This document shows positions 13,836-62,643 of a DNA stretch of 64,000 bases, one piece after another. Numbering within the stretch: the stretch's first letter is position 1; each line of letters starts with the position of its first letter. The DNA is from Cyanidioschyzon merolae (lineage: Eukaryota): NCBI GenBank assembly GCA_000091205.1, contig AP006500.2; one strand, written 5' to 3'. A model generated the notes under the pieces. That model saw nothing but the letters and a program-made list of their open reading frames with translations. It did no database searches and was not told where the DNA came from. The position numbers and the translations under genes are program-made.

Positions 13836-13903
13836 TCCGAAGAGCGCTCTACGCATACGCTCTGGGCTATTTTCTGCAGCTTTCTTGAGGTTTAGCACAT
13901 ATA

Positions 13904-22881: not shown

Positions 22882-25800
22882 CAGGACTTAGGAGAGCACT
22901 GTCCGAGAATGCTGATCAATTTTTGAATGGGCTCCAACTATGCAAAGGGATCATCATTGATCATTTTCATGCGAATTGCACATCTGAGCCTCGTGCAGAC
23001 CATAAACTCTCAAGCCGTTTCTGCGCCCATGCTAGAATGGCATGGAACGGGTCCTCTAAATAGGGTGGATACAATAACATTTGGATCGCTTCCCATTGTC
23101 GAGAGCATCAGCACGTGCTGGCTTTTGCAACCAATATTTCCTTTTCATCTCTCTTATATCTGGCTTCAAGTGCGCAAGTCTCTCCTTTCCTGTTGCTCGA
23201 TTGACAGCGATCGAAGGACTCTGATGGAACTCTTACATTCCGGATTTCTCCGCGTCTGGCTGCTTTTCACACATATCGCACTATGGCGGAACCTGCGATC
23301 TACGCCTCACCTGCCAGCATCATTTTCTTCGTATACGGCCTCGGTGCCCCGTCGCAGCCGCGATACTCGGCCCTGTAATCAGGAATTTCCATATGTCCTC
23401 CATTTCTCTTTATCCGGGAGCCGGCCAGTGGTGCATCAAGACCTGCTTCATGACACGCTATTTGCCTTTGACGGGTACACGAGGCTCCATTCGGTGATCT
23501 GCTCTGTTTTCCCGCCCGATGGCGCATCCTATGATGAAGGACTTATTGTGAGCGATCCCCTCGGCAACTGTTCTCTCCGCTGCAAATGCCACCGCATTCT
23601 CTTCACTCGATAGCTTTGCATCTTTTCCCATGCGCGCTCGTCGTTGAATAATTACTCTTCTCACAAAAGTGCAGACGTGCGTGGCTGGATGCGAAGTTTT
23701 GTAGCCACTCGTAACCATCTTGTGCCCACATATTCCATCTGCGTGCGTTCATACGGCAAAGGGTTCCCAAACTCCCTTCTGTTTCGCCCGCTCGCTCATC
23801 GCGCAATGCCCACATTCGTTCCCTACCAGTGAAACAAATATTGTGGGTACCCGAATAGAGCGTACGGATATGGTTAGAAGTCAGAGACTTCGAAATTTAT
23901 GGCCCCAGATCCTCTTCAGTTATGACGGGGAGGCTTCAGGGTCAGACCCTCTTTCGAGTCTCACGGAGGCGCAGAAATTATTATCCGCGCTCCCTCTGTC
24001 CAGGCCGATACGGATTATATCGGGGAACAAGTTCGCGAATCCATGTATTTGAATGCCCTTTGTTTCTCCGCGTTTTTGCCTTCTGAACAGTGTGTCTTTG
24101 AGGTCCGAGGGGGCCTTTAAGAGTGGGGGACATTCTGAATTGATGAGAATGCATAAATCGATGCCAAGGGACACGGAAAAGGACAATAAGTTTCCAAGCA
24201 GTCGTGCGACCACCCCGCTCCTCCGATTTTTCTTTCCCTTCGCATCTTTCTCTGCAATCCGTCGCTTTTCCTATTTCCAGGTGTTCTTGAGGGTCTCCGC
24301 AGCTCTGAGAGATAAGAATGTAGTTTGCTTGATGAACTTCATATCGTCCATCACGACCTTTGATTTTTTGACGCTCGTGTTCTGTATCGTCCCCTTCCGC
24401 TCCGCTCTCGCACGGGCGGTGCCTCCATAACGAGACGCAAATAGGGCTCCTCGAGGACTGGAAACTAGGAAGACAGAGATGCTTTTATATAAGGTGAAAA
24501 TTTCTTCCTCGTATCCTCTCAAACAGCACTAGAGACGCATAAGCGCCATCGCATTCTTGTGCAGGCTACTTCCGAGCTGTAAATCCATTTGCTTCTCGGC
24601 ACCTGGGCCTTGGGGAATACCGGACAGCGATTGATCATGCTCTCTATTCTCCGAGCCGATGAGTCTGGACGAAGCGCTGGTTATAAAGAGCTCCTTCTTA
24701 CTGTCCAGAGTCGTGACCAAGTCGTCAACCATATGTCTTTACGTTATCGCATGCTTGAGGTACTGGTAGAGATGGGCTCTGGCATGGTGCCGGATCATCG
24801 TGCATATCGACTCCCAAGTGCTTTACGAGTTATCCTGGCCGCTTTGAGTTACCAAGATACGAAGAGTTTCAAATGCTATGAATGCATTCAGCTGGGAAAC
24901 TGAAGTGCATTCAGCGTCGATGAACTCACGCAGCCGAGGAGATGGATCTTGTATGCACTCGTGGAGAATGGCAACTAAAAAGGCTGTCTGAGTCCATAGC
25001 GCCTCCCTGAAGTCGCCAAATTTTAGAAGGTCCTCAGCACTCTCGAGTTACACAGTCTTGATTGTGATTTAAGAGTACTGCGGGAGCTAGCTACAAATGA
25101 GAGAGGTTTTCCCGTATGCGAGCTATGCGTTTAGGCAGGAGAAAGTACGTTCTTAACATTCCCTTCAGACCGACGTGGATTAGAGCAGCAATGAGCGCAG
25201 CCGCTTGTGCGAGAGAACAGGCGGACCATAGGCTTCGTACATGAAGGTGCCCTGTCTGAGAGGGGTATATTTCTGGAGAACCGGTACGCACATCTTTTCA
25301 AAGCGCTCGAGGCTTGAATAATTGCTCTTCCAGAGCTTTCCCCGGCAGAACATATGTCCCTGTGCTGGGTGCTTCTTTTGATGAACACGCTTGAGATATA
25401 CGTTCCTCATGCCTTGTTCATCTTTTTCTGATACCGCCTTGGAAAGTCGCCATCCGCAAATGGGAAAGATTTAAGGAAAACAAGTGCCGAAGAACTTAGC
25501 GTGTTCAGTCGCGGAGCCCATAGCACCGAGCACCAGTTCGTGTCGAGAACAATCCGATTTTCTGAAGCTTGTATTTGTTTTCCTGAATCTTTTCTTCGCG
25601 GCCTTGAAGACGTCTTCAATCGGGTCGGGCCCTCTAGACTATGTGGCAGTGCATGAAATATCCAATCCTCTGTTCTCTGCTGTTTTCCAAACAGAGTAGG
25701 ATTTCAGAACGCGATGTTGTTCAGAGTGAAACGAGTATCGGAGGGAAAATCTAGGTTGCTGACAATGTCGACCAAGTTTGCTCCTTCCAGGCTCACTTTG

Positions 25801-26547
25801 TGCAAAGCGGAGACGTAGAATTCCATGGAAATGATTGCAGCAGTGATTGGAGTTCGAACCCAGCATCCGTTTCCATGCAAGCAGAACAGACGGGATCCTG
25901 TAACTGCACATCTCGTAAGAGTAACTGGGCCACATTTGAATGGCGTTTCACTGATGGTAATGAAGAGAGGTGGATTCGACGTGCAAAATGAATCAATCAT
26001 GTGAAGAGGTAATTTGATTGAATTTTCTGCATGAGCTTGTGAGCAAAACGTGAATGAACGACATCGAGTTTTTTACTCGTCTATCCATCAGAGCGAATCT
26101 TGTGCCCACGTGTAGCCCAGAAACAGAACTTTCGAGTTCTTGAACACTCCGGAATTCGAGCATCCTGGTCATAAGGGAAATAGAAGAGTGAAGGGATGCA
26201 CGTATGAACTGTTTCATGATTTCGTATATTTTACAGACCCTTGTTTTACGACATCGCGGTTCTGCTTAATTTCGGTCATTCAACGAATTGCACCGGTAAA
26301 AAGTGGAAGGAACCACTCCGGAAAGAAAATCGAGAACTCTTAAACTACGTATGAATCCGTAAAATTTTAGTCATGATATTCGAATGTCGACAATGTTCAC
26401 CTGAAACATTTTCGGAGAAAAACAAAAGGTATGAGCAGACCGAGCTGTTCAGTGTTCTGTTCTAACCTGACACTGGTGTATATGTATGTTCAGTAAAACA
26501 ATAAACTTTCAAGGACCCTAGAGTGTCTATACACACCCAATCACATA

Positions 26548-27095
26548 CGCCTCCCAGCATGTTTTGGCCGGTCTCCTGCTATCGGCCTCAGTTTCTCTTT
26601 TTACACGTCGACCCTGAGAGGCTGTCCCACAAAGTTTGCCTGCGTCAGCTCTTCGCGTCTCGTCTTCAGCGCCACACATCGTCTGACATTGACGGCGGCG
26701 TCTTATTCTCGGCTTAGAAAATCCTTGGGTTTATGGCGATTGGTTGAGGTCACTACTGCAAGGAATCGCAGAACAAGCGCCCTCTGTGCCACTGTACTCT
26801 CGTTATCGTCTCTTCGGGCGAAAAACTTTTCTCGCCTGCCTCCTCTTTTCCTCATCCTCTTCGTCACTTGCTCGTCTTCACTCGATGGTCAGGGACGGGA
26901 GGATCTTGAAGCTTCTCCGACATCAGGCAATGACGGCCCTGCAAAATCCCTGACTTCCATATCCATACCTCTAACTTGGATTTTGTACTTTTTAAAAATG
27001 ACGTACTTCGAGCTCATTTGCTATAAACCGCGAAAAGGCATTTAATTACACGCACATGAGGTCGATCACACTTGAGGTGAAAGAATATTCGGACC
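26548..27095 (-). mobile_element. Fanzor/TnpB-remnant MITE-like element, copy E (non-autonomous, decayed)
   Basis: The minus strand encodes ...*DAAVNVRRCVALKTRREELTQANFVGQPLRVDV*. The 3' block is ...CCGATAGCAGGAGACCGGCCAAAACATGCTGGGAGGCGTATGTGATTGG. The region 26920-27080 is homologous to 59995-60170 and to 11130-11300. Confidence 0.6.
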
Positions 27096-31226: not shown

Positions 31227-34200
31227 TGCACAGATGCTCAAAGAAACGGTATCAGAAAACCCACTGGATGCGAATTTTCCATACCCTTGATATGAGCCGT
31301 GGTGAAGCGACATGGATGGGCAAAGAGAAAAAAAGGTGCCTCCCCAGGAGACCGTCACGAGCTGGACATTTTCGATTCCGCATTGATAGGCGAACGCTTA
31401 TGACAGGAGCGACCGGTACTCGCCTCTCTCGGTAACAGCTCTTTCGTGAAAAACGGAGGATCTAACCGTGGATACGCAAAGCGGTGCGAAACGCCTCTCG
31501 TAAAGCCTCGACCGGTGAGCGTAGCGACGACAACATCAGCCCCAGCGGCGATTCAAGCATGTAGTCGCCTGAGTATCGGCAAACAGGCAGACTCAAGCAA
31601 CACGTCTGCCTCCCTTCTTCGAAGCACTCTGTGGCCTCTGCTTCTCGCGTTATTCTGTCCTGCGGGTAGGCCACGTTGCTTGCTGTGACGCAAAGGCGCT
31701 CCACGAGTGCGCAGCTGAGACGAGCGTTGAGCTGGTGTTCGCTTCAGCCTGGAAGTGCACGCTCAGTCCAGTTGGAAGCGTCTTCTCTGTCCTCCGTCGC
31801 CATGCTTTCCCTCAGGATGCGTTCCATAAAAACGTTCGGATGCGTGACGCTGTCCTTGGACAAGTCGTTTTCAGTCTTCGTCAGCGTTGAACGACTCTGG
31901 TGCTGAGCGGGTCGCCTGCGGGGAGGGATCGGTAAAGCGCGCCTCAGGCGTTTGGCACGCTCGCGGCTGAGAAGCTCGTGGAAAAGGCAGCTGCGGGATC
32001 GGAAACATATATACGCGGGGAGGCAAGTTTCTGGCTCGCCGTCCATCCACGGGGTCTGACTGCCGGTGTAAGAAAATGGAAGTGGAGTGCGACGTGCACA
32101 TCCACGCTACCCGCCACGAAAGGAGAATGCGAAGCAACCACCTGACAGAAAAGAGAAGGATCCCAGCCGCAAAGAGGACGACGAGAGTCAGGAAGGAAAC
32201 CCTGCGCACTGGAAAGGCCAGTCCGAAACCAGCGCCTACACGTCGGTGCCAGAACGCATCAACGGAAAAAATTCTCCGAGTACGTGAGATGCCCAGGGCT
32301 ATTAGGTATTGCGTAGAATGTGGTTGTCGGAAGGCTCGCCTAGCTCTCCCCGAATGGATGCCCCTCGTGCAGCAACTGGCGGCAAGGGTTTCGGAGGCAG
32401 CGCTGCCAGCAGTTCGCATTCGTAGGGAGTTTTTGGTCAAACCCTCGAGCGACAGCACTAGGAATGCTCCGCTCCGAGCATGCCAGCGGGCCTGTTCGTG
32501 GTGTCATTGACCAATACACACGCTGGCCGGCATCCGTTTCTGCGCTGCACTACATGGTTGCTCGGCCCATGGACAGCGTAGGTGCCAGGAAAAGTTTCGC
32601 CCAAACCTCAGAACCCATAGCCAAGAGCGGGTCCGTGGCGACTACCCTACGAGGCGCACCCCAGAGGCGTTGTACTCGTTGCGTCCACAGCGTTGTGGTC
32701 GACGAAATGTTGGCGACTGGCGCAAGCGGCTCTTGGGATGTCCGTGGAGGCACGTGACGAGCTGGCTCCGGACGAGAAGGTGCTGGAAGCGAGCTCGGAG
32801 ATGTCGCATCGAGAACGAGCGACGCTCCAGATCGTCCGAGCTCATGGAGTAGGTTTCTGTTCCGGAGCTGGGCACGTCGTCTCGGAAGGATTACGCGGGC
32901 GTTGACCTGGCCTAACTTGCATCCTGCGCTGCTAGGTTTTCGCGAACGCGGCGCTCCACCGCAAGGCAGACCCTCTGGTCGTATGTGAGCGCCTTTGCAT
33001 CCTCAAACCCCTGGTCGATACGGTCCCCGCATTTCGGGGCAAAGCCCATGATACCACCGTGCATATTTGTGTGGTGTACGACGTCCTCAGTGGTCTACGA
33101 TGTGTGCGCACGAGCAGCTAGGGGGCACTCTACCTATTTCGGGCAGAGCGTTGGCGGGGCTCGTTCATCGCCACTCGTTGGCTGGGAAAACACGGAAAGC
33201 GATGTACAGGGGCCTTGGAGACGCGCACGGCACATCAAACAGCATGCACTTTGCGAAACCCCGGCCCGCTCGGAGCAACGAGACTCATATTCAACCGCTT
33301 ACGGAAAACGAACGTGAAGGCTTCGTGGTGCGCGTGGATGCCGTTTCTGAGGGCCCGTGGCCGTCACCGTGCCCGTTCGTCAAGGGGCAGCGCCAGAGAC
33401 CTGAACGGAAAGCAAATGAGTCTGCTCCACGCCTCCAGGGCTCGGTATCATCCGGAGTTGGACGTGAACGACGCCAGCAGGCGTACCAACTCGTGGAATG
33501 ACGACGTAAAGACCTGTCGTGACGCGCTGAGTACGGTATCGGGCAAAAGGAGATGCACTGCGCACCTCATTCATAACGGGTATGAGCGACTAGATCGCTC
33601 ATGCGGACGAGCCATGGCAGAGGAACGCGGGACCGAGCTCGAGTCTCCAACAGTCGCAACCGCTCGCGGGCACGAGGCGGGTATTCGCAAGCTTCCTCAA
33701 AGCACTGGAAACGGAACTGGCCGATCGGTTGCATCTTATAAAGATAGTGCATGGCGGTGGACGCGCTCTAGTTGCAGAACTGGACTGTCGTCGATAACGC
33801 ACAAGGGATCCGCGAACCGGCACTGAAGTGCTCTCAGTGATGAGCTCTGGACGAGATTCTCACATCGCGAGCACAGAGACACGCTGAAACTGCCGGTGAA
33901 GACGATTTGGAAACGGAGCCGGACGTATGAGATGACGTACGCTGAGTTCATTGAGCTCCAGGTGGCAATGCAGTCACAGTTGAGACGCTTGCTGTGGAGT
34001 GTCTCCATCACGAACGGGAAACGCGTCCAGTTTCTGAACCGAGATTTGAGCGCCCATATCAGCATCTGGAACTGCATCGTTCTTCAGGAGCGTCCATCGG
34101 CTTTACTTCAGGCGAGGCTTCGATTCGATTGTCTAGTATGCAGTGTGGGTATTGTGCTGGAATGCTGCGGACTCTCGATGAAAAACATCATGTATCATCA

Positions 34201-34313
34201 GAGCGGCGATTAAGTCCCCGCTTGGAGCAAGCCACTTGTATGGTACGGTCTGCACTGTATCAAGGCTGGACTGCCATATACCTTCGCCACGAACAATGTT
34301 CGTGGGTAATTGT
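31227..34313. repeat. Copy 2 of the 3.09 kb near-identical direct repeat
   Basis: See copy 1. It starts about 300 bp upstream of the RRM gene start and ends about 290 bp before the DUF1517 gene. Confidence 0.85.
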
Positions 34314-44163: not shown

Positions 44164-45999
44164 TTAAACAGCACGCGTGCGAGCTGCTTCGATGATCGGC
44201 TCCAGGCTCGGGTCAATTTCCGTGATGCGTACCGGTCTTTTGAGTTCGAAGGAACGTCTAGCGGCCATGGCCATAACCACGGCGATGCGGCCGTCGAAGC
44301 CCGACGGCAACGGCAAAGCAGGCGTACCCGCATCCGTTCCCGCTTCGGCTTTGCGGGCGCCGCCTGCTCGAATCTCTACCAGGTGCTGCACCCAGGCAAG
44401 CATCTCCTGCAGATAAGCCTCCGCGTAACGTTCCATGAAAAAGTTCAACGGTTTGTCCCGGTGCTGTCCAATCACATCCATATACTCAGCAGTGTTGGGA
44501 TACTCGTTGCCGACGGTGATGCAGCCCTCGGTTCCAAAGAGCTCCGCGCGCTGGTCATACGCCTGATGCGGAGTCGATCGCGAATTGTCGATGACGCAAA
44601 TTGCGTCGTTTGCGAAGCGCACCTGAGTCATGACGTGATCGCAGTCCCCGATTTCCGCTATACTCGGTTCGCAGCAAAGGCCCATGGCAAACACTTCGAC
44701 GGGCTCTGACTTAAGCAGAAATCGAGCCATATCGAAGTCGTGGATCGCCTGGTCGAGCCAGATGCCGCCAGAGACTTTGAGATAGGCGAGCGGTGGCGGC
44801 GCAGGATCCCTCGACACAAGGTGTAGCTTGAGTGGCCTCCCGAGAAACCCGGAGTCATGGGCAAGGCGCGCACGTTGGAAGTTTTGATCGTATCTGCGCT
44901 GAAAAGCAACCATCAGCTGGATGCCTGAGCGTTGCAGTCGACGCAGCCGGCGATCATGCTCGAATTGTGCCAGGCTTAGATTGTCAAGTCCAGTCTCGCC
45001 GCTGACGAACAGGCTCGGGCGTTTTGCTTGAAGTCGCAGCTCTTTGACGTCCGCATTCGCAGCGTCCAGTGTTGCCAGCGCATCATCGATCACATCAAGG
45101 CCGAGTGCAATCGGCTTCTCGCAGAAAACGTGCTTCCCATAGCGCGCGCACTCCTTCATAAGCGGTGCGTGGGTGTCCGTCGGCGAACAGATGACCACGG
45201 CGTCCACTCTAGGGTCATGCACCAAGTCCTCCGCATTCGTGTACCAGATGGGGACGTGGAAACGCGCCGCAACCCGTCGGGCAGCATCCTCAATGGCATC
45301 ACTCACAGCTACAAGCGCAGCGTTCGGCACGCGGTTCGCCAAGTTATTCGCATGAACCTGGCCGATACGCCCACATCCGATGATCCCGACTCGCAGCCGC
45401 GAGGCATTGTAGGCCGAGGCCGCACTCTGTGCAGAAGCCGTGCCAGCCACCGGGGGCAGCACGCTCTCGCTCAACGTTCCTACAAGGACACGGCTAGGCG
45501 CAGGCTCGGCAGCGTCTTTGCTCAGAGCCGTCTCTTGTTCTGAAGAGTCCTCAGAATCAACCTCAACCAGCTCCTCATCCTCTAGACGAAGCGCTGAAGC
45601 GGTCAAACGAACAAAAGACTCTAGCTCCTGCCGAAGCATCACCTCATAAATGCGCTCCTCAGGTCCTTTTCCAACTTTTGACTGGCGAGCTGCCTGTTCC
45701 TTGCTTGCGAGGCTGAGCAGATCGCTGCTCGAAAGCTGGCGTGGATCGCGGCCCGGCTGCACCGAGGCGCCACCCTGAGCATTTTTCAAGTTGCCCGACT
45801 GTAAAGTTTCAGCCTTGGATCCCGATCTGCGCAGCAGTCCAGCTCTATAATCAGCGCGGTACATGAGTCTCGTGAACGATTCAAGAGTTGAACTCGCTGC
45901 CTCACATAAAATTGATAAAGAAATGAACGGCGGTGCGTCGCGGCTTGCAGCGCGGATCAGGAGCGCAGGCGGTGCGATAGCGCATGATCCACCACACAT
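44164..45999 (-). CDS. Gfo/Idh/MocA-family NAD(P)-dependent oxidoreductase with a roughly 190-aa low-complexity N-terminal extension
   Basis: Rossmann motif RVGIIGCGRIGQVHANNL...AVVICSPTDTHAPLMKECARYGKHVFCEKPIA matches the Gfo/Idh/MocA N-terminal domain. The upstream part is rich in E, S and A. Confidence 0.75.
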   Translation of the reverse strand: MCGGSCAIAPPALLIRAASRDAPPFISLSILCEAASSTLESFTRLMYRADYRAGLLRRSGSKAETLQSGNLKNAQGGASVQPGRDPRQLSSSDLLSLASKEQAARQSKVGKGPEERIYEVMLRQELESFVRLTASALRLEDEELVEVDSEDSSEQETALSKDAAEPAPSRVLVGTLSESVLPPVAGTASAQSAASAYNASRLRVGIIGCGRIGQVHANNLANRVPNAALVAVSDAIEDAARRVAARFHVPIWYTNAEDLVHDPRVDAVVICSPTDTHAPLMKECARYGKHVFCEKPIALGLDVIDDALATLDAANADVKELRLQAKRPSLFVSGETGLDNLSLAQFEHDRRLRRLQRSGIQLMVAFQRRYDQNFQRARLAHDSGFLGRPLKLHLVSRDPAPPPLAYLKVSGGIWLDQAIHDFDMARFLLKSEPVEVFAMGLCCEPSIAEIGDCDHVMTQVRFANDAICVIDNSRSTPHQAYDQRAELFGTEGCITVGNEYPNTAEYMDVIGQHRDKPLNFFMERYAEAYLQEMLAWVQHLVEIRAGGARKAEAGTDAGTPALPLPSGFDGRIAVVMAMAARRSFELKRPVRITEIDPSLEPIIEAARTRAV

Positions 46000-48430
46000 T
46001 TTTCGGGGGGCGCTTTTGCATTCGTGCCTGAATAAAAGTGGATAGGTCTACTTGTCGAACTCGCGTTTGCATCATCAAGTTTGGGATGCTTCCCGACGCT
46101 ATCTACACCAGCGTTGAGGAGATTTTTCCTCCAACCATTTCCATATTCTTTCCCATACCTTCATCGGGGGGCACGGCGGCCTCTCGTGTCCCTCCAGTTC
46201 CGTTGTCAGCAGTCGATGAATGTTGGTGCCGAGGTTCAAGTCGCGATTTCGCTGATTCCGCTTGTTTTCATTTGCGTTTGACGCACAGGTGCACGTTATG
46301 AGAGACGCGACGCATGCCATTTTCGTCTTCTTTGTATATAGCCTGGGTACGACCCTGGCAGTGGTGAGGCATTTTAATGGTCCGGGGTTGCGCTGTATCC
46401 ACAACACATCTCACTCCAAGGCGGGGCTGTAGCGCGTGAACGCTCGCTGGATCGCTCGATATATTTCCTTGACGGGTACCGAGGGCTCGCCTGAACGCTC
46501 TCTTCCGTCCCCGCGCTGTGCCATGCCCTACGATCAGGGGCTTGTTGTGGGCGATGGCATCAGCGAGTCATCCGTCCGCAGCACACGCGGGCGTACGTAG
46601 TACCATTCTATAGACGATTTGGGGAGCATGATATCGTGCATGACGAAAAACGATCAGAAGGAAAACCTAGCTGGAGAACAAGTCAAGAAATGTCGACCCG
46701 TATACGCTCTCTTCGTACAAAGCAGAGACGCACCTTCGACATGAAGCGATCACAGCAATGACTAATTTCCGAGTCCGATACCCTTTTGGATGCGAACCGA
46801 GGACACAGGAGCCTCTGGGAGCGTAGCCCGGTAAAGGTGTCTTGTAGCTGCGTAAACCTATATCAACGATGATCAATCAGAGAAACGTACTTGTCTTTCG
46901 AACGGAATCGATGATTTGAAGTGACATGTTCAGTGAGCTCGCGGCAAGAGCTCGTGAAGATGTTGTTAATTGACGACTGCTTGACTTTTAGCTGGTCAAT
47001 GCGGCAGCGCGAAGTGCTCTGCCTACGAGCTGTCTTTAAATAACAAGCTCGAAAGCTTGTCGAATGTGCAATATGAGTTTGCTTCACGTAAGGAAATCAG
47101 ACAAGTGGAGGCTTATATGTATGAACAGGATGATGATATCTATTATTTCGCGAAAGCTAGTTCGTGTGCATTGCGAACCATCGAAACGGTGGTGAAGTAA
47201 TGAATTCCTGCCGCAGTGAGTCGCAGGAACCACTCCGAAAAGAATCCCAAGAATCCGAAACCTCGTCTGAACACGTGAACCCGCATTATCGCACTTCGAA
47301 AGCGGAGGCTGTCCATCTTGCAAACGCTACCAAAAATTGACAGACTGGAAGAGAGCGAGCAGCACAGCCTTCCGCTTCAGTCTGAGACGGGTGTCGCGTA
47401 TCGTTCCGAATAGGCATGCCTATACACAGTCCTGGTTGCACAGCCTATCGGGGCCTGAACTGACAATGGGCTCTCGTCCAGCCCTTGTACAGAAAAGCGT
47501 AAAGGAGTTGCGAAATCGTCTTTTTCTTCGTAAAGTGTTATCGAGGGCTCTAGATCGATTGTGCATACCATTGGCAACCACTTGCTGGGTAGTGCCCGAT
47601 TGCAGTGAACATTGTCGAAATGATAGATCAGTCCCGGATCGGCTCTCGCAGACGGAGAGCGCGTATGAGCGTTCCTATGCTCTTGGCTGAACGCCCTGTT
47701 CTCCATCTATAGGCGGTACTTTTTGCACTGCCTCCTATTCTTGTGCTTCTGCATAGTTGAACGATTGGTAAGGATCTTCGAAAAATCATGGTAGAAAAGG
47801 TGTCTCTTTAGTCGGTGCAGAATGATCTAGGGGAGGACTCGGAATGGAGCCTGCCTCGGACTCCGCAATCACGGATTCCTTCAGATTGTCTACGAATGTA
47901 AACCAATGAAACTTCTTCTGGCCTTAAATCGCGCCTTGGAACGCACCTCTGTCTCTGGATCCGCCAATTACTTCACAACATCCATCTTAGTAAACCAGTT
48001 CAACTTCTGTGTTCCATAAGAGGGCCTGCCTTGTATGTTCCGATTCATTAATTCCAAGAGCCTTGCTCTAAAATTGTATCACTACTGATCTCGTGAAACA
48101 ACATCATTGGTGGTGTTCATTTACATATCTTTATCGGATATTCCGCAGCATGCGAGCGCCGCTTCGAAGTGAAAATTCCGACGCAAAAGTCTGGCCCAGG
48201 ACCGTTCACGTGTAGCTGTGTCTACAGCGGCTCGGTTGTCAATGCTCTAGCTGCTGTAGACAGACAAGGTTCATGGGGTTTTAGCTGCAGCCATCGGCTT
48301 CATATCAAAAACATCAAAGCAGAAAATCCATATAGCGAACGGGCCGGGATAAAGCACTGTGCATGTTGAGCTTTTTTTCTGTATCCAAGAAACGCGACTC
48401 AAGTATTGCGGAACCATGATGGATGCCCAT

Positions 48431-52264: not shown

Positions 52265-55034
52265 GCAGTTGCATACAAAGCGGGACGGTTAGCGCTCTGC
52301 TGAGTAACGATAGGCAATAACTTTGTATCGAAAACAGCAAACTCGCTTGTAGTGCGATCGAGATGCTATATAAAAATGGATCTTTTTGGACATCAAATCC
52401 GAGTCGCCCACACAAACGGCGTGGGGGAAAACCCTCGTTGCCTGCTATGGCATATGCACGTCGACTTATGTCGGAATGAAATGGAAAAGTCCAGCCAACT
52501 CGGGGTTAAACTTTCAGACTTTGATCACTTGGGACTGTAATCAACACCAGCTTGTACGAAATTTCTCTTCGACTACCTTCGTGTCTTTCTCTCGAATCGC
52601 TGACTTTTAATACGTCGGTATCTCCGTGCTCTCAAGGCCCATATTTTGCTGTCCAAAGACGTTGATGGCAGCCTTGAAGTCCCCATTTAGCAGCGCCCAG
52701 CTATTGACGACGCATTTTATGCTTAGGAGGACGTCGCGATTCACGAATCGCTTCCCATTTTCATCTACTTTGTATTCAGCCCAGGTCTGCTCTTCGTAGG
52801 GGTGAAACTTGACCGCGATCACGTGTTCCATTGTGTCCGCTAAAATTACTCCTCCTGCGGATGCCACGCTGTGGTTCACGAAAGCTTGGTTCATAGCGCA
52901 TTATATGCCTTTGATGAGCATAGATGGCTCCGTTCGCCATTTTGATCAGCTTCTGGACCCGGTGCCACACCTTACGATAACAGGCTTTCTCTGGGCGATC
53001 CCCTCGGGGAGTATTCTTTCCACTGTACACGCAAGAGCTCCAAGCTCCATTCCATAGCTTCCTATCTGGCTCCTTGCGCGCTCTTCGTTTTCTGCCTACT
53101 CTTCCCATAAATCCTGCCGATGAGCTTGATGGGCATCAAGGTACCTGAACCGATCAAGAGCAACGTGTCCGCACTTTCCATGCGCTTTCGACAAGGCAGT
53201 AACGGCCTATGAAATTCGTTCCTGTTTCGCTCCCTTGAAGTAACATTCTCTCATTCCGTTCCTTCTCCTAAAAAAGAACATGAAAGGTGTGTGAGTAGAA
53301 CACAAGAATGTAGGTAAAATTCGGAGCGTTGGAGACATCCGGCTCTCGAGCGTGGCCGTTGACGACAGGGGTCGGTGTCCTCTTCGGGTGTCATGGAATC
53401 GCAGTTGCAAAGGCTTATCCTCCATGGATACATGCCGGTGCAGTTCGCATTGAGGACAAAGTTCGCAGGACTATGCATCCGCATTGCTCGGCGCTGCTCG
53501 GCGTAGCTCCCTTTCTGGGCATGGGTACATGTGCGCACTGTCGGTCATGAAGCGTGCAGGACGTTCGTGGATGGTGTTGAATGTTGCCTCGCCAGCGGTC
53601 TCGATGGAGGGCAACTGTTGCCCTATGTATAGTGCAAACCGCCTGTACCTCCCTTTTTCTTCCCATTCGCATCTCTCTTTGCTTTCAGTCGATTTTTGTT
53701 CATCCAACAGTTTACAAGTTCCTTCTAAGCTTCGAGTGAAAATTGCAGTGTTCCCTTCATCATGTCTTCGCCCGCAAACATCTACTCTTCGTTTTCAACG
53801 CTGTCGTTTTCCACCGGACGCATCTACGCCTAGTTTGCGAGGATGCCCCCTCTACAATGAAGCGAAAAGCGCGCGAATCAAGACGCTGGTATAAAAGACC
53901 GAGAGATTCATTCGAATTAGGCAAGATTATTTCCGTTAGGGGCGCTGGAACAGCACGCCACATGCAGAAGCACCATCGCTTTCGTGTGCGGGTTACTCAC
54001 AGGTGGTGGATCCACCTTATTCTCGGCGTCGTCGCGCTTGAAGGATCTTCTATGGAGGTGCTTCATGGACTAGGTATTCTGCGAGCCTATTAAGCCTCGC
54101 CGAAGAGCCACTTGTGAAGAGCTATCTCATGCTGCTGACTGAGTTGCCGACCTCTGACTATGCTGCATCGAATCCCCCATGTTGGGAAGGAGACTGACAG
54201 CTGATTGGCAATTCGAAGTGAATAAGAACAGAAACCAGCACCCAGCGAGAAATTGGATGTGCGTTCCTCTCTTCCTCCTGCATAAGATATTGAGGAAGAA
54301 CACTTTACGTGTATTTGGAAGTTTATCTTATACGCGAGAGGTCCGTCGAGACGAAGCACTCTACCGGACGAGTCCTTCGCGCGCTCCCCGGGTTGGCTGC
54401 TTTCGCGAAACCTGAACATATCGTCTGGAACGCAGTTTTCTTTCTGGCTACGAGTTGGCGGACTGTTTCTGAACTTCGCCACGGTCGCTGTAATCTCCCA
54501 GCTTGTCGTTTCGCGCCGCCTGCAGCCTGTTTGAGCGACCTTCTGAATCCCAGAATGAGGATGAGTTTCGACCCTGCGTCGGGTAAAGCAATTTGGTGCC
54601 GACGCCCCCATGGTATGGCAAAGCCCTTCTGTCCCCGTGCTGCATCCTCACCGGCGCTGTGGGCCTCATTGTGAACGCTCACAGCTGGCTCGACGCACGA
54701 TGGAGCGATTGGAAAGACAGTTATCTTAGAGAAGAATGATATGTACAACCTGGTGGAAATTTCAGGCTGGGCGATATGATGGACGGTTTCTCGGATGCCG
54801 TGATCAGTCGCGCAGTTAAACCCCTCTGTCAGTGTAAATATTTTGTCGTTTAAAAAATTAGAAAAAAATCACATTCGACGCGCCGCTGTTCGAAGTGATC
54901 AGATAATGAATGCTGTAGCAAAAAGATGGACAGAGTCTGTGCTGTCCTATTTATACAAATCGTCCGTGGAACAAACAATGTTTTACGAGCATGTGGAATA
55001 AATTAGTATCCACTCACAGATGCCTTCCATCCTT

Positions 55035-56235
55035 TTTAAGCGTCCGACTGCTATCGGCTTCAGCTTCTCCAAGCGCATTTCGACTCTGAGAGGTTGCCCC
55101 AAAAATTTGCTCGTGTCAGCCCCTCGGGTACCGTCTTCAGCACCGTACATCTCCTGACATTTATGACAGCGTTCCAGTCTCGATTCACGAACTCCATGCA
55201 TTTCTTGCCGCTGTTTGAACTCACCAGTGCAAGGAGAACTCGCGCGCCTGCCTTTTGTACCATTTGCTGCTTCGTCAGCTCTGGGTGCCTATCTACCACC
55301 GAAGCGCTCCGCTGCCTTTCCGCCATCTCTACCCTCTGGAGTGTACATCAAAGCTCATCCCTTAGAGTTTTTATTTTTTCTAACTGAATGCACTTCTTTA
55401 TGCCACCAGGAGAGGATCTTTTCCGAAAGAGAAGCATTTGCGGAAGACAGATGAAATGTGCCAGGATATGTCACTGTGTGCTGAAAGGTTCAGCGAATCG
55501 CATATTGGAGCGATCATTACCTGTCACAATAGGGAACATTCCTTCGATGGGGTTGAACCAAGGATTATACGGAGGACTGAAAAGCAGTTTTGCCTGGATA
55601 GAATCTGCAAAATCTCGAACACTAGCGGAATGATGAAATATTACGTTGTCCAAAAGAAGATCGTCGCCAGCCTTCATGGAAACGTCTTCAATGATGCGGC
55701 AAAGTGGGTGCTGTTGAATCAGCCTTCTCTACGAGCGAAACTGAGGCCGACAATAGTATCCACTACATCTAGAACAAATGATGATATTCTCGTTCCCTTC
55801 GAGTTCGATCATACGAACAATGGGCACCCTGCTCAGCGAATACCCATACACTTTCCGATCGTTCCGTGAGAAGAAATCTCACAGACTGAAACACATCTAG
55901 GTTCCACTGCTTCATACCGATCGCGACGTTCATGGAACTCTGTAGATGCATTTTCGGTGGAATATGGCCTTGCGTGAACAAGGACTTTCTTGCGACTGTA
56001 TCCCAGTGTTTTCAGTACCACACGAACAAGCTGTTGAGAAAGAGAGACTCCCGTGGTGACTGTGATCGACGCTTTTGCATTCCGCAAAAGGTGATCAACG
56101 GGTCGTTTTCTACCACTGACCGCAGGTTCTCTTTTAGAGTATCGGGTTTTGGCGCGGAACGCGTATTATTGTTTCATTCAGAGTTCCTCCACCACCCGAG
56201 TACTGTGGTATGACTAACCTAACGGTGGAATTTGG
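55035..56235 (-). mobile_element. Tc1/mariner-like element with DDE_3 transposase remnant plus Fanzor/TnpB-like C-terminal remnant, copy B (decayed)
   Basis: Minus-strand order: HTH-like fragment (ORF 55833-56087), DDE_3 LLLDNVIFHHS...FSPPYNPWFNPIEGMF (55677-55471), then RuvC-III-like SNSGKKCMEFVNRDWNAVINVRRCTVLKTVPEGLTRANFWGN...QPLRVEMRLEKLKPIAVGRLKRM (55326-54983). The 3' block ends ...GGATGGAAGGCATCTGTGAGTGG. The 5' end is homologous to 12528-12700. Confidence 0.65.
55438..56087 (-). pseudogene. Tc1/IS630-family (DDE_3) transposase pseudogene, frameshifted (part of element B)
   Basis: ORFs 55833-56087, 55769-55981 and 55471-55677 on the minus strand lie in shifted frames. DN..H and P.YNPWFNPIEG match the DDE_3 C-terminus. 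Confidence 0.65.
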
Positions 56236-57289
56236 TCCTGCTACCACTGCCCAGTAAAGAATATGTATCCTACATGCAATCCGTCAAAGATCTATACAGT
56301 ACATCACGTGGTGATGTCGATCTCCTGCAATAGACTGTGACATAGCATTCGATCACACTCAGCGGGGGCCGAACGAAACTGAGTTGAAAGACCATAATGG
56401 GCATCAAAGTCTGCTTAGGTGGAACAAAAACCTTTACGATTTCGTTCAGGAAAACGCAAACGTATTTATAAGGAATCGGTCACCTTGCCCCTCGCGAAGA
56501 CGCACAGAGGGATTGCAGACACAAATCAACGCATTTCTAGGCATAGTGTCTCCGCAGAGCATAGACGCTTCTCGAGGTCAGCTGCGGCACAGCAGCAGCC
56601 GCGCACCCGTGAGCGGAGTCTTCAGGAGCGGGACTAGACAGCGAACCGCACGGCGGAACAGGAAGCAGATTCGTATGCTCAGTTAGTGCCTGCGAGGCAC
56701 AACTGCGTTCGTTTCCAGCTTCGGTCGCCCTCGCAACTCTTTATCTCTGAAACAATCTGTATGTCTCGATATATGCACACCAATGTGTTCGTTTTAATTC
56801 GCCTTTCGATGCTCCTGGCCTTGCGCTCTCGGTTGTACGCTGGCGGCGCGTAAAGCTTCGCATATGTTGCGTATAGATGCCACTGCCGCAGCTCAGGAGC
56901 GGTGCTTGTCGCCCCGGTGCTGATGCAAGAAAACTATCTTCCGTTCCATCTCGACGAGTGGCAACCAAGTTTTCCAGACATTCCCAGTTCTTGGCTGCTT
57001 GGTTCGGATACGTTTTTGGGGATAACTCACACATGTTCTTGTACGTGCCGGCGGTGCCTCTGCGCTCAGAATGGTGGATATTCACCGCCTCCATCTCCTA
57101 CAGGCTTGGATTTCTGTGGGATCTACTTTAACCGCAAGTTTGAGCGCTAGCTCGTCTCGCTGCGAGCCCGCCGCAATCTCATCAGTTCGCGTAGATTCGC
57201 TGTCGCAGCGAGACGTTTATCCGGTTTCGCTTGCAACGGGCTTGCAGTGGTCCCGAAGAGAAGGGTCTTTGCGTTTGCGGTAAGATCGC

Positions 57290-57673
57290 ATGGGTAAAAA
57301 AACCACTAAAACTGCGAACAAAGCAGGTACAGGTTCGAATTCGACCGACTCAAAGCTGAAAACAGCCAACTTTGTGAAGGCTCGACACATTCTCTGCTCT
57401 AAGCAGGGTACCATCCAGGAAGTGTATAAGACGCTCATAGAACGCACAGAGACGCAGCGCTCCGCGTTGCCATCGACTTTCGCCGAGCTCGCATCCAAGT
57501 ATTCTGAGTGTCCGTCTGCCAAACGTGGTGGAGACTTGGGCTGGTTCGACAGGCAGAAGATGGAACCGAAGTTCAGGGAAGTGGCCTTCTCCACTGCTCC
57601 CGGGAACGTCTCGGAGCCTTTTAAAGGTGCGAACGGCTGGCATATTGTCTTCGTTGAAGGCCGCCGGAACTAG
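57290..57673 (+). CDS. PIN4: Parvulin-type peptidyl-prolyl cis-trans isomerase, Par14/PIN4-like
   Basis: Basic N-terminus, then KARHILCSKQGTIQEVYK...FAELASKYSECPSAKRGGDLGWFDRQKMEPKFREVAFS...GWHIVFVEGRRN. Confidence 0.85.
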   Translation: MGKKTTKTANKAGTGSNSTDSKLKTANFVKARHILCSKQGTIQEVYKTLIERTETQRSALPSTFAELASKYSECPSAKRGGDLGWFDRQKMEPKFREVAFSTAPGNVSEPFKGANGWHIVFVEGRRN

Positions 57674-57756
57674 CTCAGACCGCTGGGAGTCTGCATACTG
57701 CTTGACCCGCAGACCGGTGCCGTCGACAAGCGTTCAAGTTTTCTTAGGGTACCTCT

Positions 57757-59147
57757 GTACCCTTGCCAGTCTAAAACGGAGCACTGAACTGCTCGCCATG
57801 CTCCTGCATTTCGGTATTTTCCGAACATTTTTTCGATGTGCAGCCTCGACAATCGAAGTGAAGCAATAACGGCGTACGGTTTCATAAGTGGTTTTACGAT
57901 TCTCGCGCGTATTTTGGGAGTGACTCGGTTCACGCCCTGCCGCTGCAATTCGTCACATTTCATCAATCAAAGTGCACCGCGCGGCCCTGGAGCATGCGTT
58001 CGCACGGTAACCGACATCAGTTTGCAAGCCGAACGCCCCAGCGTCCGCTCCTGCCCTCTCCTCCCCTTGCGCGTGTCATGCTCAAACCACGCATTCTCCA
58101 AGTCTTCGATTCTTCCGTTTCGGGGCACCTCGTGGGGGCAGCTATTCGCGCCGATGGATTGACGAGCAAAATACCACACGTAGTCTATTGGCGACTTGTG
58201 CACAAGCTCATGCCGAAAGCTCCCTGCACTCGGCACGTCAAATGAACGATTCCGTTCGATAGACAAACCCTCCTTTCTCTGTAGCTATCAAGGAGACGGC
58301 ATTCGACATCAGCATGGTACCATACACAAAGAATCCACCAGGAAGCTCCAGTTTCTTCCGTTTGCACGGAAGACGGGCGTGAACTCGGGCTTTAGTCATT
58401 GCACGGACCGTTTCCAGTGGGGAACGCATCTCTGTTTCGCGCCACTGGAATATAGACAGATCGAAACCTCTCGACTTGTTCTCCAGCCTGGATTCTCCTT
58501 CCGGTGCGTGTCTCGTCGTGGGCAACATCGTGCCCCGCGAATCCTCTGTCGAATAGCGCAGGATGCGCTTCCGAGTGCGCAGCGGACAGAGTTCTCGCTG
58601 GAAGCATGGCCCAGCGGAAGCCCCAGATCATGGGGTACGGTTCAGTGCGCCGAAGCGGAGGTGGGCGTCCACGCGCGCCTTCTGCACCGGTCAAGGGCAT
58701 GTGCCGAGCGCTGAAGCAAGCCTTCAGGTGCCACAGGGCGGCGCGCGAGCTCGGATGTCTGATGGACATACAGAAATACCTGAACACAGCCAAGTGCCAC
58801 AGCGGCGAAGTGCCTACTGAGCCGTACGGAAAGAGGACGAGAAAAGCGCGCAAAGCGTATATCGCAAATTTCGTACTTGCATGGAATGTGTCGCCAACAA
58901 CCGGTAACAGCTGCATAGGGACATGAACGCTGCCACCAACAGCCTTCGACAATGTGCACTGGAGCTGGTGGGAAAGGGGGGTATGATGCATTTAAAGCCG
59001 GAAGTAAGAGGGAGGACACCGAACCGGTCACCGAAAAAGCCGTGAAAGGCTGGTATTGATGGCAGTGGCAGGAGAGGCCCAACCTGTTTGTGTGCGTGTC
59101 CCCGGATAACACAGTGGACCCGTTCCATTTTAGCCTGACGTAGATGT
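57757..59147. repeat. Left arm of inverted repeat IR2 (about 1.39 kb); right arm 61015-62403
   Basis: Mirrored ORFs: 58392-58991(-) versus 61170-61922(+), 58642-59217(-) versus 60947-61519(+), 57967-58266(-) equals 61894-62193(+), and 57836-58162(+) equals 61998-62324(-). One 1-bp indel was seen (TTTCCAGTGGGG versus TTTCCGTGGGG). There is no similarity to the IR1 arms. Confidence 0.85.
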
Positions 59148-59648
59148 AGCCGGTGAATGATCGCAGGCGATGCACGAAGCACGCGGCGGTAGCGGTAGGA
59201 GTTCTGTGCTGTTCCATATATACGGCGTTGTCATACGTTTGCAGTCCGTTTGTTACGCGGCAAAGAAGGATTAATATTCAACTCAGAGCAGGTCATGGAA
59301 GTCGATTCAATTTTGCCATTCAATGTCAAATTTTGTCATTCATGGACGCTTGCCTCATGTTCTTGGGTGGCTCGACTCGCACTCTCGTCGCTAACGCATC
59401 GGTACGGAGCAGTTCTGAGCTCATCGCGGCACAGCGTTCCGTCGATTTCAGGTAAAGCGCAACTGGGCATACGCTGCAAGTTGAATAGGATATTGGTTTA
59501 CTTGGACCAAATGAAGGGGTCGTTGAGCCCAATAAGTTTATCCAGATGCCCTTCCACATAAAGGAATCGATAAACTTCGGAACTGTGTTTCAGTTATCAG
59601 AAGGACCAAAAAGCGTTCTACAACCATGCAGTCCAAATACCCGCTTAC

Positions 59649-60185
59649 TCACAGACGCCTCCCAGCTTTCTTTTGGCAGGCAACCGAAATTGGAATCCGT
59701 TTTTATCCCAGCGAACTTCGATACCGAGAGACCGCCCCACAAAGTTGGCTCGTGCCGGCTCCTCGAGTCAATTCGTCAAAACCACACATCTTCTGATATT
59801 GATGGCGGCTTTGCAATCTTGGCTCACGAACTCCTTGCATATATTGCCTCTGGTTGAACGCAACTTTGCATGTTTCCCTCGAACTTGCACCCTCCGCGCC
59901 ATTACAATCTCGTCATCGTTCCGTCGGGCAAACTCCTCGGCCCGCCTACATCCTTGTTCTTCTTCAATTGCTCTTCTTCGCTCGTTCGGTAGCTGGCGAT
60001 GATGGCCCTCCAGCATCCCCGACTTCCATATCCATATCTCTCACTAAGACCTTTTTAAAATAAACACACTTCGAACGTATATGCTATAAACCACAAAAGA
60101 TAAGCATTTGATTCCACTCATCTGGGCGTGGAACACAATTGAAGAAAAAGACTACAAGATACAGGCAGCCGTTGCTTTCAGGAAT
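59649..60185 (-). mobile_element. Fanzor/TnpB-remnant MITE-like element, copy C, lying in the IR2 spacer
   Basis: Minus ORF 59768-60016 reads ...RGNICKEFVSQDCKAAINIRRCVVLTN, then ...ARANFVGRSLGIEVR. The 3' block is ...GGTTGCCTGCCAAAAGAAAGCTGGGAGGCGTCTGTGAGTAAG. The upstream roughly 300 bp is homologous to copies D and E. Confidence 0.6.
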
Positions 60186-61014
60186 ACGGCACGCGTTGGA
60201 GTTTGGATCATGAACCTGGACGCTGGCGGCGGTCGTCGCAGCCGCCGCTGCCGTCTGCGGCCTCAGCGTCAAAGAACGGCTGCATTAAATTATTTTACTC
60301 GAGGGCATCGCCTTCTTCTATACTGCTGAAGCATACAGACGTTATTTCTTTGTTAAGCTTGCGCTTAACGCTCGACACCCAAGCTCGCGATTGTTGTCCA
60401 ATAGCATGGAATCTCTCTCTACTGCACCAAGGGATGAGCGCTTTCCCCACACGAACCAGACGAGGAACTGCTGGGTTCGCTACGTTGAGTGGAAACTGTG
60501 CGAAGAGAAACACGGCGAGGAAGAGTCCGAGTGCAAAAAGTTTGGTCGTTGGGCACGCGCACTTTGCCCAGTAGACTGGATCGAGCGGTGGGATGAACAG
60601 CGAGCAAACGGGACGTTTCCTGGGCCCTCCGGCGAGTCCTCGTGAGCATATGGCGCTGCATATTTCAGTGACTACGGGCTCCGCGGAAGAATTGGAACTT
60701 TCCTAGTACTGCTTTTTCTGACAGATTGAGGCGAAAGGTTCTGGGCGACTTCCTCGACGGAGAAATGTTTTCCACTCGAAAGAATATCATGCATATGGTT
60801 CTACAACCACAAAACAACAGCAGGTCTGTGTCGTATGCGACTTGCGAGTTTTATGGCCTACCTCCTGGTCTCTTGTCATGAACAACGGCGCGCCATGTGA
60901 AAGCATGGAAGCCCATCATCACTTGAGAGAATTTGATTGAAATTCTTTGGACCAGAGGAGAAATATAATCACACTCGGGAAGTGCTTATGGCGATGTTTC
61001 TCTTGTTCGCTAGA

Positions 61015-62403
61015 CATCTACGTCAGGCTAAAATGGAACGGGTCCACTGTGTTATCCGGGGACACGCACACAAACAGGTTGGGCCTCTCCTGCCACTGCC
61101 ATCAATACCAGCCTTTCACGGCTTTTTCGGTGACCGGTTCGGTGTCCTCCCTCTTACTTCCGGCTTTAAATGCATCATACCCCCCTTTCCCACCAGCTCC
61201 AGTGCACATTGTCGAAGGCTGTTGGTGGCAGCGTTCATGTCCCTATGCAGCTGTTACCGGTTGTTGGCGACACATTCCATGCAAGTACGAAATTTGCGAT
61301 ATACGCTTTGCGCGCTTTTCTCGTCCTCTTTCCGTACGGCTCAGTAGGCACTTCGCCGCTGTGGCACTTGGCTGTGTTCAGGTATTTCTGTATGTCCATC
61401 AGACATCCGAGCTCGCGCGCCGCCCTGTGGCACCTGAAGGCTTGCTTCAGCGCTCGGCACATGCCCTTGACCGGTGCAGAAGGCGCGCGTGGACGCCCAC
61501 CTCCGCTTCGGCGCACTGAACCGTACCCCATGATCTGGGGCTTCCGCTGGGCCATGCTTCCAGCGAGAACTCTGTCCGCTGCGCACTCGGAAGCGCATCC
61601 TGCGCTATTCGACAGAGGATTCGCGGGGCACGATGTTGCCCACGACGAGACACGCACCGGAAGGAGAATCCAGGCTGGAGAACAAGTCGAGAGGTTTCGA
61701 TCTGTCTATATTCCAGTGGCGCGAAACAGAGATGCGTTCCCCACGGAAACGGTCCGTGCAATGACTAAAGCCCGAGTTCACGCCCGTCTTCCGTGCAAAC
61801 GGAAGAAACTGGAGCTTCCTGGTGGATTCTTTGTGTATGGTACCATGCTGATGTCGAATGCCGTCTCCTTGATAGCTACAGAGAAAGGAGGGTTTGTCTA
61901 TCGAACGGAATCGTTCATTTGACGTGCCGAGTGCAGGGAGCTTTCGGCATGAGCTTGTGCACAAGTCGCCAATAGACTACGTGTGGTATTTTGCTCGTCA
62001 ATCCATCGGCGCGAATAGCTGCCCCCACGAGGTGCCCCGAAACGGAAGAATCGAAGACTTGGAGAATGCGTGGTTTGAGCATGACACGCGCAAGGGGAGG
62101 AGAGGGCAGGAGCGGACGCTGGGGCGTTCGGCTTGCAAACTGATGTCGGTTACCGTGCGAACGCATGCTCCAGGGCCGCGCGGTGCACTTTGATTGATGA
62201 AATGTGACGAATTGCAGCGGCAGGGCGTGAACCGAGTCACTCCCAAAATACGCGCGAGAATCGTAAAACCACTTATGAAACCGTACGCCGTTATTGCTTC
62301 ACTTCGATTGTCGAGGCTGCACATCGAAAAAATGTTCGGAAAATACCGAAATGCAGGAGCATGGCGAGCAGTTCAGTGCTCCGTTTTAGACTGGCAAGGG
62401 TAC
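61015..62403. repeat. Right arm of inverted repeat IR2
   Basis: See the left-arm entry. Confidence 0.85.
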
Positions 62404-62643
62404 AGTTTACAGCATGGAAAAACTTCGCTGTGCGTGGGTATGTGTGTGCATATTTACGTTCATAGATGCATGCGCCCCGCGAAGAGCCCTGTCCTTTACT
62501 CGAGTAATACAATCCATCGGCCTGCGAATCAGACAGTTTTCACGAATCTTGCATCCAGGGATGTGTTTTCTGAGGGACTCATTGAGCAATCTTTCGCAGG
62601 TGCAGCAGTGCGGATGGCTATACGAGCGCACGCATCTACGGTT

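Follow-up and report, generated by a model that had tools for sequence, protein, structure and literature searches.

The locus around COX6B

The subject of this study is a long inverted repeat, IR2, that lies towards the right end of a 64,000-nucleotide stretch of the Cyanidioschyzon merolae genome (contig AP006500.2, assembly GCA_000091205.1); this whole stretch is called the window, and all positions refer to it. IR2 is situated between a parvulin-type peptidyl-prolyl isomerase gene (BAM82588.1, 57290..57673, plus strand) on its left and a VPS29-like gene (BAM82590.1, 62644..63333, minus strand) on its right, and its arms enclose COX6B (BAM82589.1, 60406..60645, plus strand), which encodes cytochrome c oxidase subunit VIb. 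A scan of open reading frames (ORFs) gives both flanking genes, with ends at 57673 and 62644, where an earlier inspection of the letters alone (hereafter the sequence-only reading) had placed them. The parvulin, COX6B and VPS29-like products match 10D proteins exactly; COX6B has a Pfam COX6B match at E 8.8e-17, and Rotamase Pfam domains are found on the called parvulin gene. A related inverted repeat, IR1, surrounds the TsaE gene elsewhere in the window, and the TsaE product likewise equals a 10D protein. The reading that we favour, and consider probable, is that IR2 consists of two old transposon insertions on either side of a gene, which have been homogenised by gene conversion between inverted repeats.

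A repeat finder and a global alignment place arm 1 at 57755..59147 (1393 nt, plus strand) and arm 2 at 61014..62405 (1392 nt, minus strand), each arm being two bases longer at its outer end than first noted. The repeat finder returns two pairs of perfectly complementary blocks, 58412-59147/61014-61749 and 57755-58415/61745-62405, and the sole difference between the arms is an additional A at position 58416 (plus strand) of arm 1 (CCAGTGG versus CCGTGG), in agreement with the single-base indel reported before. This A is present in 14 of the 14 environmental contigs tested and is absent only from arm 2 of 10D. The spacer, at 59148..61013, measures 1866 nt (1.87 kb in the sequence-only reading) and contains ancestral intergenic DNA, COX6B and a transposon relic, element C. 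Each arm is a complete copy of one decayed non-autonomous DNA transposon of about 1.4 kb, and the 3' ends of both copies are directed towards the spacer.

Long perfect repeats are well known for causing assembly errors, and the single indel could itself be a consensus error, as the A is found in all environmental arms tested. The window lies on chromosome 18 of C. merolae 10D, which in the reference is, however, a finished, gap-free Sanger sequence (PMC1955436), and each junction of IR2 is reproduced by independent, multi-sample assemblies of hot-spring metagenomes, whose contigs are 99.6-99.8% identical to the window. The junction from parvulin through the arm into the spacer is spanned by contig L001, which ends 95 nt into the second arm; the junction from the spacer through the arm to VPS29 is spanned by L022; and L027 runs from one arm end across the spacer into the other arm. 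The spacer by itself forms a contig of 1866 nt (L025) in 10 samples. The independent assemblies break at precisely the arm boundaries, and most short-read contigs terminate 50-200 nt inside an IR2 arm, the usual outcome when short reads are assembled across an exact repeat. An exact 31-mer of the arm is found in four contigs of the metagenome collection, in two flank contexts, all at the IR2 locus; for a 199-aa ORF of the arm, every contig among the matches listed maps to the same locus, and no third near-identical arm copy occurs among the metagenome contigs examined. With independent contigs across the junctions and the 31-mer at a single locus, assembly collapse, against which the sequence-only reading had cautioned, is excluded, and the probability that the reference holds a collapsed or mis-joined repeat is negligible. 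IR2 is a real structure of an ordinary kind and no assembly artefact.

A family of decayed 1.4-kb transposons

The arms of IR2 had been thought to share no similarity with those of IR1. This is refuted by blastn, which aligns the two with 66% identity over 653 nt (E 3e-39, arm positions 323-967) and gives further matches at other places in the window, and by nhmmer, which aligns them over their full length, in equal orientation relative to their respective spacers. A nucleotide profile of this arm family finds, with nhmmer, nine pieces at seven loci within the window. Besides the two arms of IR2, the IR1 copies lie at about 16336-17774 (plus strand) and about 19317-20764 (minus strand); further copies lie at 5494-6783 (plus strand), at 47391-46030 (minus strand) and, split by a 2.1-kb insertion, at 26477-25699 plus 23611-23038 (minus strand), and a 3' half is found at 53052-52470 (minus strand). 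The family occupies 16% of the window. Identity between copies at different loci is only 53-60%, and every copy is heavily decayed by stops and frameshifts, with no intact reading frame. Arm 1 covers positions 2 to 1466 of the family model, and full-length copies span nearly the whole profile, their starts differing by no more than about 25 positions and their ends by no more than about 65. An arm is therefore a single, complete family unit of about 1.4 kb.

To what kind of element these units belong can be read only from a reconstructed sequence, since Pfam gives no match when the translation of the real arm is stitched across its frames. Long frames reappeared in a majority consensus built from six copies. 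Its N-terminal part resembles Pfam DDE_3 below the curated threshold (E 6.6e-4; 20 bits, the cut-off being 28.6; profile positions 3-88 of 146) and HTH_33, likewise below the curated cut-off (E 0.076); BLASTP of the consensus against the transposase of PUl-1 yields no significant match. The C-terminal part resembles Cas12f1-like_TNB, the former OrfB_Zn_ribbon, at a level below the Pfam cut-off (E 6e-4), reads CHGC...CVKC...RNRDLNAAINIL, and aligns by BLASTP to the C-termini of the Fanzor1 proteins of PUl-1 (E 2e-6) and CMe-1 (E 2e-5). Fanzor1 proteins have been characterised by the motif D-X(125-275)-[TS][TS]-X-X-C4 zinc finger-X(5-50)-RD (Bao and Jurka 2013, PMC3627910). The family consensus retains neither the [TS][TS] pair nor the RuvC-II glutamate, and there is no N-terminal Fanzor part. 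Within arm 1, these two parts correspond to a putative remnant of an IS630/Tc1-mariner-type, DDE_3-like transposase (...NPPFSVAIKETAFD...) at approximately 58150..58560 (plus strand), assigned through the sub-threshold consensus match, and to a frameshifted Fanzor/TnpB-like C-terminal remnant at approximately 58560..59050 (plus strand), assigned from translations and from the Pfam and BLASTP matches of the consensus. The latter reads ...YLNTAKCHSGE..., followed by R-DMNAATN at 58917-58940.

The IR2 copies and the left IR1 copy are bordered by terminal inverted repeats, degenerate and about 20-35 bp long, which can also be made out by eye in the family consensus; the other copies give weak alignments only. 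The terminal repeats of the IR1 copies are very unlike those of the IR2 copies. Tandem Repeats Finder reports a single 20-nt motif in two copies in each IR2 arm. A scan of the whole window with Rfam at gathering thresholds and with a tRNA finder returned no match, so the arms are not RNA genes, and in a sequence search of the PDB neither half of the consensus had a relevant match. In protein databases the consensus has a single relative, P0052, which is a further decayed copy that happens to contain an ORF. Taken as sequence resemblances, these features indicate that the arm family is non-autonomous and probably arose by internal deletion from a mariner/IS630-type transposon with a Fanzor1 gene.

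Transposons of this composite type, a mariner/IS630 element with a Fanzor1 gene, have been described before, among them PUl-1 of Pythium ultimum (PMC3627910). The arm family appears to share with them a DDE_3/HTH_33-like N-terminal part and a C-terminal part with a Fanzor1-like zinc ribbon and RD-NAA-NI residues, both lying between terminal inverted repeats; it differs in length, at about 1.4 kb against about 3.6 kb for PUl-1-type elements, in domain matches that stay below threshold, and in that a TA duplication is not demonstrable. We also considered whether the arms might be members of CMe-1A, the Fanzor1 element of C. merolae, and rejected this, as its published consensus and protein match other relics in blastn and tblastn searches and not the arm family.

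Some further relics were seen in passing. The 2,087-bp insertion at 23612-25698 that splits one family copy resembles neither CMe-1A nor any other part of the window. Beyond the right end of the window, a few kb past VPS29, the arm family has one more split copy, at positions 3660-5301 of contig L011. At about 55470-55676 (positions 8182-8388 of contig L004), outside the arm-family copies, a 68-aa gene called in the environmental contig has a precomputed Pfam DDE_3 match and represents another IS630/Tc1-type transposase relic.

The spacer and element C

The sequence-only reading described the spacer by its Fanzor-related element, which is indeed there, and left out its main content, the COX6B gene. 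COX6B is an intact, single-copy host gene, with orthologues identically placed in relatives. Element C (59649..60185, minus strand) is an internal-deletion derivative of CMe-1A, for which a 3169-bp consensus and a protein have been published (Bao and Jurka 2013, PMC3627910); it joins consensus positions of about 790-955 to about 2830-3000. A blastn comparison of element C with other copies in the window covers 59649-60154. Against the CMe-1A consensus, positions 791-954 correspond to 60149-59987 and positions 2831-3001 to 59903-59736, at about 71% identity on the minus strand, and the C-terminus of the CMe-1A protein matches element C in tblastn (E 3e-9). Its earlier label, a Fanzor-derived miniature inverted-repeat transposable element (Fanzor-MITE), is thus a reasonable one. 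The same deletion structure is repeated at 10847-11301 and 26544-27088.

Other sequences related to this element are present in the window. Additional fragments of CMe-1A lie at 13401-13679, 54319-54656 and 55079-55358; two are 3'-end pieces and one is a 5'-region piece (consensus 191-539), the 5' region of CMe-1A having been equated with TE-N2_CMe by Bao and Jurka (PMC3627910). A direct repeat of 3,086 bp, 99.5% identical between its copies at 7346-10431 and 31229-34313, which are 23.9 kb apart, holds in each copy a decayed Fanzor1 (CMe-1-like) frame, with tblastn matches at 9504-10223 and 33374-34105. Near-identical duplication in the window thus comes in a second form, with its copies in direct and not inverted orientation.

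The enclosed genes stand at their ancestral sites

For IR2, synteny was examined on contigs from related Cyanidiophyceae (73-78% identity in coding sequences), one NCBI assembly among them. The order in these relatives is parvulin (plus), 923 nt, COX6B (plus), 753 nt, VPS29 (minus), followed by Sld5, and the contigs with parvulin, COX6B and VPS29 contain no match to the arm family. At the other inverted repeat, Cyanidiococcus yangmingshanensis has the order ABC (plus), 1185 nt, TsaE (plus), 934 nt, GT (plus), and the arm family is absent even at E<=10 from the 20.7 kb of that genome that is syntenic with about 46 kb of the window. Once the arms are subtracted, intergenic distances in 10D approximate those of the relatives. 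Since the gene order is identical in relatives that are free of arms, the arms are lineage-specific insertions beside genes that have not moved. By this comparison of gene order, the orientation of the enclosed genes in 10D is the ancestral one, and the spacer is ancestral host DNA.

These results bear directly on the origin first proposed for IR2, namely a foldback-type element or a palindromic duplication at the insertion site of a Fanzor-MITE. Such an origin would account for long inverted arms around a spacer with a Fanzor-derived element, and for the presence of two such structures of similar dimensions in one window. However, the spacer holds a conserved host gene in ancestral order and orientation, the flanking host DNA is unduplicated, and the arms, which are not made of subrepeats, are self-contained units of a dispersed family with terminal inverted repeats of their own and with solitary copies as well. 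Nor is a tie to Fanzor-MITE insertion upheld, for blastn and comparison with the CMe-1A consensus find no CMe-1A-derived element in the spacer of IR1. Given ancestral synteny in relatives that have no arms, neither a foldback element nor a mobile composite unit nor a palindromic duplication of host DNA is tenable; we regard an origin of this kind as extremely improbable. What does survive of the earlier proposal is that the shared architecture of IR1 and IR2 has a common cause, the same transposon family in the same convergent orientation.

Two known kinds of transposon invite comparison here. In foldback transposons of the FB/Galileo type, long inverted arms also enclose a central spacer, but these arms are the termini of the element itself, often with subrepeats, and the whole unit is mobile, whereas the arms of IR2 are whole elements with host DNA between them. 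The arm sequence has no other context among the contigs examined, which gives no indication that the unit of arm, spacer and arm has moved. The bacterial composite transposons Tn5 and Tn10 are similar in having an inverted pair of one IS-like element around a gene-bearing segment; they differ in that the 'cargo' of IR2 and IR1 remains at its ancestral site with its ancestral neighbours, that the element copies are pseudogenised, and that there is no sign of movement of the unit. The COX6B and TsaE loci are syntenic, and no target duplication is recognisable around the whole unit that would speak for composite transposition.

One rearrangement was observed in the same comparison with Cyanidiococcus. 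The region is colinear in its other genes, but a GFO/IDH/MocA-type oxidoreductase gene at 44164-45999 points the opposite way to its orthologue, and the solitary arm-family copy at 46030-47391 directly adjoins it.

Probable gene conversion between the arms

Within the IR1 and IR2 pairs the identity is 99.93-100%, against 53-60% across loci. The most informative case is IR1, which encloses the TsaE gene (BAM82576.1, 17990..18670, plus strand; Pfam TsaE, E 1e-27), the counterpart of COX6B, and in which the 3' ends of both copies point to the enclosed spacer as they do in IR2. The tract of exact identity in IR1 runs over 16336-17747 and 20755-19344 and, in a multiple alignment, stops about 12 nt (5') and about 27 nt (3') short of the element ends. 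Past this tract, both copies continue with ends that are homologous to the family and that differ between left and right; a profile built without the IR1 copies still extends 11-20 nt past the tract. As the tract ends inside diverged element ends, IR1 would consist of two old copies that were homogenised in their interior only.

Comparison of strains points in the same direction for IR2. At the outer end of the arm on the VPS29 side, one environmental sample shows 5 differences in 194 nt from the arm on the parvulin side (L011 versus L001), and another sample shows 3 in 129 nt (L017 versus L031). The two arms of 10D show zero substitutions between them, and the strains are 0.1-0.5% off 10D within the arms. 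Being common to 10D and the environmental populations, the repeat predates their split, and a single old duplication evolving freely should show several differences between the arms of 10D. Base composition is a further indication: the GC content of paired arms is 55.4% and 53.3% against 43-51% in solitary copies, in both halves of the element, as expected from GC-biased gene conversion, although with two pairs against four solitary copies this is only suggestive. Gene-targeting work has established that C. merolae recombines homologous DNA efficiently.

The main competing explanation is recent local transposition, in which a short inverted hop, followed by repair of the donor site, left two arms that are identical because they are young. 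Cut-and-paste elements do hop locally, the arm boundaries coincide with the element termini within a few bases, as copying mediated by a transposase would give, and the IR2 arms differ by just one indel. Yet every copy is heavily decayed by stops and frameshifts, and no intact transposase or Fanzor of the arm family was found; because all copies are pseudogenised and no autonomous partner is known from these searches, recent mobilisation of two very different copies is unlikely; a recent hop would require it of both IR1 and IR2, whose terminal repeats are very dissimilar. The diverged element ends of the IR1 partners are unlike those of a fresh copy. Moreover, the repeat is older than the divergence of 10D from environmental populations that are 0.2-0.5% apart, and the metagenome contigs examined show no third near-identical copy. 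On balance, we consider a recent local hop unlikely.

Several observations also weigh against the favoured reading of old insertions homogenised by gene conversion, and should be kept in view. Conversion is inferred rather than observed. IR2 lacks diverged element ends and, taken alone, is indistinguishable from a recent duplication; the strain comparisons use short-read metagenome contigs that may be mixtures of strains, and the GC contrast is one of few copies. As to the nature of the element, the transposase and Fanzor assignments all fall below the curated Pfam thresholds, no intact relative came up when the consensus was compared with 5.8 billion proteins, and no TA target-site duplication is definable around the arm copies, whose exact termini cannot be fixed at copy identities of 53-60%. 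Finally, two neighbouring copies in direct orientation, the right copy of IR1 and the copy that starts at 26477, are only 2.3 kb apart and have not been homogenised (57% identity). Proximity alone is therefore insufficient, and the IR pairs probably began as near-identical sister insertions, which could stem from local hops at a time when the family was active.

The favoured sequence of events can be summarised as follows. An element derived by deletion, in which the front part of an IS630/Tc1-mariner-type transposase is fused to the C-terminal portion of a Fanzor1 nuclease between degenerate terminal inverted repeats of about 30 bp, would have inserted twice, convergently, into both intergenic regions flanking COX6B. 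That the insertions fell within the C. merolae lineage, after the split from Cyanidiococcus-like relatives, is the step that the arm-free loci of those relatives document. The near-identity of the pair was then most likely kept by repeated intrachromosomal gene conversion between close inverted repeats. IR1 would be an independent case of the same process around TsaE, and IR2 a passive by-product of it. Crossovers between the arms are predicted to flip the COX6B cassette harmlessly.

Does the repetition of this architecture require a special mechanism? The nine pieces amount to approximately eight or nine insertions over roughly 26 intergenic regions, from which, by our estimate, random insertion should give one or two adjacent inverted pairs; hence no special mechanism is needed. 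One could imagine that convergent, gene-bracketing pairs are produced systematically, for instance through local transposition or when repair triggered by a nuclease copies the element past the nearest gene, and that they persist genome-wide as recombination-active cassettes which flip housekeeping genes and provide mRNAs with long complementary 3' ends. This scenario appears to us quite improbable. C. merolae is not known to have RNAi.

A tandem repeat was also noted in IR1. A 13-nt unit (AGCGCATGAACCG, 7.2 copies) is present in both arms, at 17256-17348 and 19743-19835, whereas other copies of the family lack it. Environmental contigs show alignment breaks at this repeat, which suggests variation of its copy number among strains.

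Apparent inversions of the spacers and possible transcription of the arms

A number of environmental contigs look at first sight like inverted forms of the two loci. COX6B is joined through an arm to the parvulin flank in L023, L024, L026 and L028-L034, and TsaE is joined to the 'wrong' flank in L044 and L046-L049, the last four having the order TsaE, arm, ABC. Together they span 56616-62405 and 11291-20755 of the window. These contigs begin at gene 5' ends, at about 60273-60336 for COX6B and about 17630-17870 for TsaE, and continue through the whole arm into the opposite flank. Two of them start with Illumina adapter sequence, and the upstream junctions of L026 and L028 differ from each other and are chimeric. 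The sample series from which they come fits the Lemonade Creek project, which includes many poly-A and RiboMinus metatranscriptomes of '10D-like' C. merolae (PMC11662350). With starts at gene 5' ends, adapters, chimeric upstream sequence and samples of metatranscriptome type, we rejected these contigs as evidence for inversion of the spacer. L026 was likewise rejected as a strain with PP2C beside COX6B, given that its upstream junction differs from that of L028. The metagenomic contig L044, with a flipped IR1, and L045, with an unflipped one, were discarded as evidence for orientation: both inversion isomers share the same k-mer content, and paths of short reads through a collapsed arm are therefore arbitrary.

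These contigs matter for the view that IR2 is a selected, functional structure, an invertible cassette or a regulatory device in which flipping, or complementary transcripts of the arms, would regulate COX6B or its neighbours. In its favour, two host genes are bracketed alike and convergently, contigs run through an arm from COX6B into the parvulin flank and from TsaE into the flank opposite, and arm sequence occurs in apparent transcript assemblies. But the 'flipped' contigs begin where genes begin, in some cases behind adapter or chimeric sequence, and belong to a project rich in metatranscriptomes; short-read joins across a collapsed inverted repeat, with equal k-mers for both isomers, are silent on orientation. 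Relatives do without the arms, and since the family makes up 16% of the window, chance alone should yield about one or two neighbouring pairs in inverted orientation, by the estimate given above. A selected cassette is very unlikely.

From the contigs that begin at gene 5' ends it seems that read-through from parvulin and COX6B carries transcription into the arms, and read-through transcripts of these two genes are predicted to bear complementary arm sequence, which would give their mRNAs complementary tails. The contigs that start at TsaE, probably metatranscriptomic, imply that read-through into an arm may occur at IR1 too.

Relation to known palindromes and significance

One close likeness is to the palindromes of human and primate Y chromosomes and to the inverted repeats of plastids. 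In both, as here, near-identical inverted arms surround a unique spacer, identity exceeds what the age of the structure would predict and GC content is raised; intrachromosomal gene conversion homogenises the arms, and inversion of the spacer is possible. The differences lie in content and in evidence. The arms there are multi-gene amplicons, whereas an IR2 arm is a single dead transposon copy of 1.4 kb with a housekeeping gene in the spacer, and conversion is deduced here from the tract boundaries of IR1, strain comparisons and GC content and not measured. IR2 is a known kind of structure in a new place, the routine outcome of transposon insertion and recombination.

For the biology of C. merolae, the arm family is in itself of some consequence. 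The genome paper gave a transposon content of about 0.7% (PMC1955436), and an old, apparently undescribed family of about 1.4 kb is abundant in this genome reputed to be almost free of transposons; it explains in part why about 46 kb of the window are matched by only 20.7 kb of syntenic sequence in Cyanidiococcus. Perfect inverted repeats of 1.4 kb at COX6B and TsaE are likely substrates for inversion, and they are traps for the assembly of short-read genomes and transcripts, as the mis-joined environmental contigs witness. IR1 and IR2 also provide small natural cases of probable gene conversion between inverted repeats, with a tract boundary (in IR1) and a shift in GC content, in an alga that is open to genetic work.

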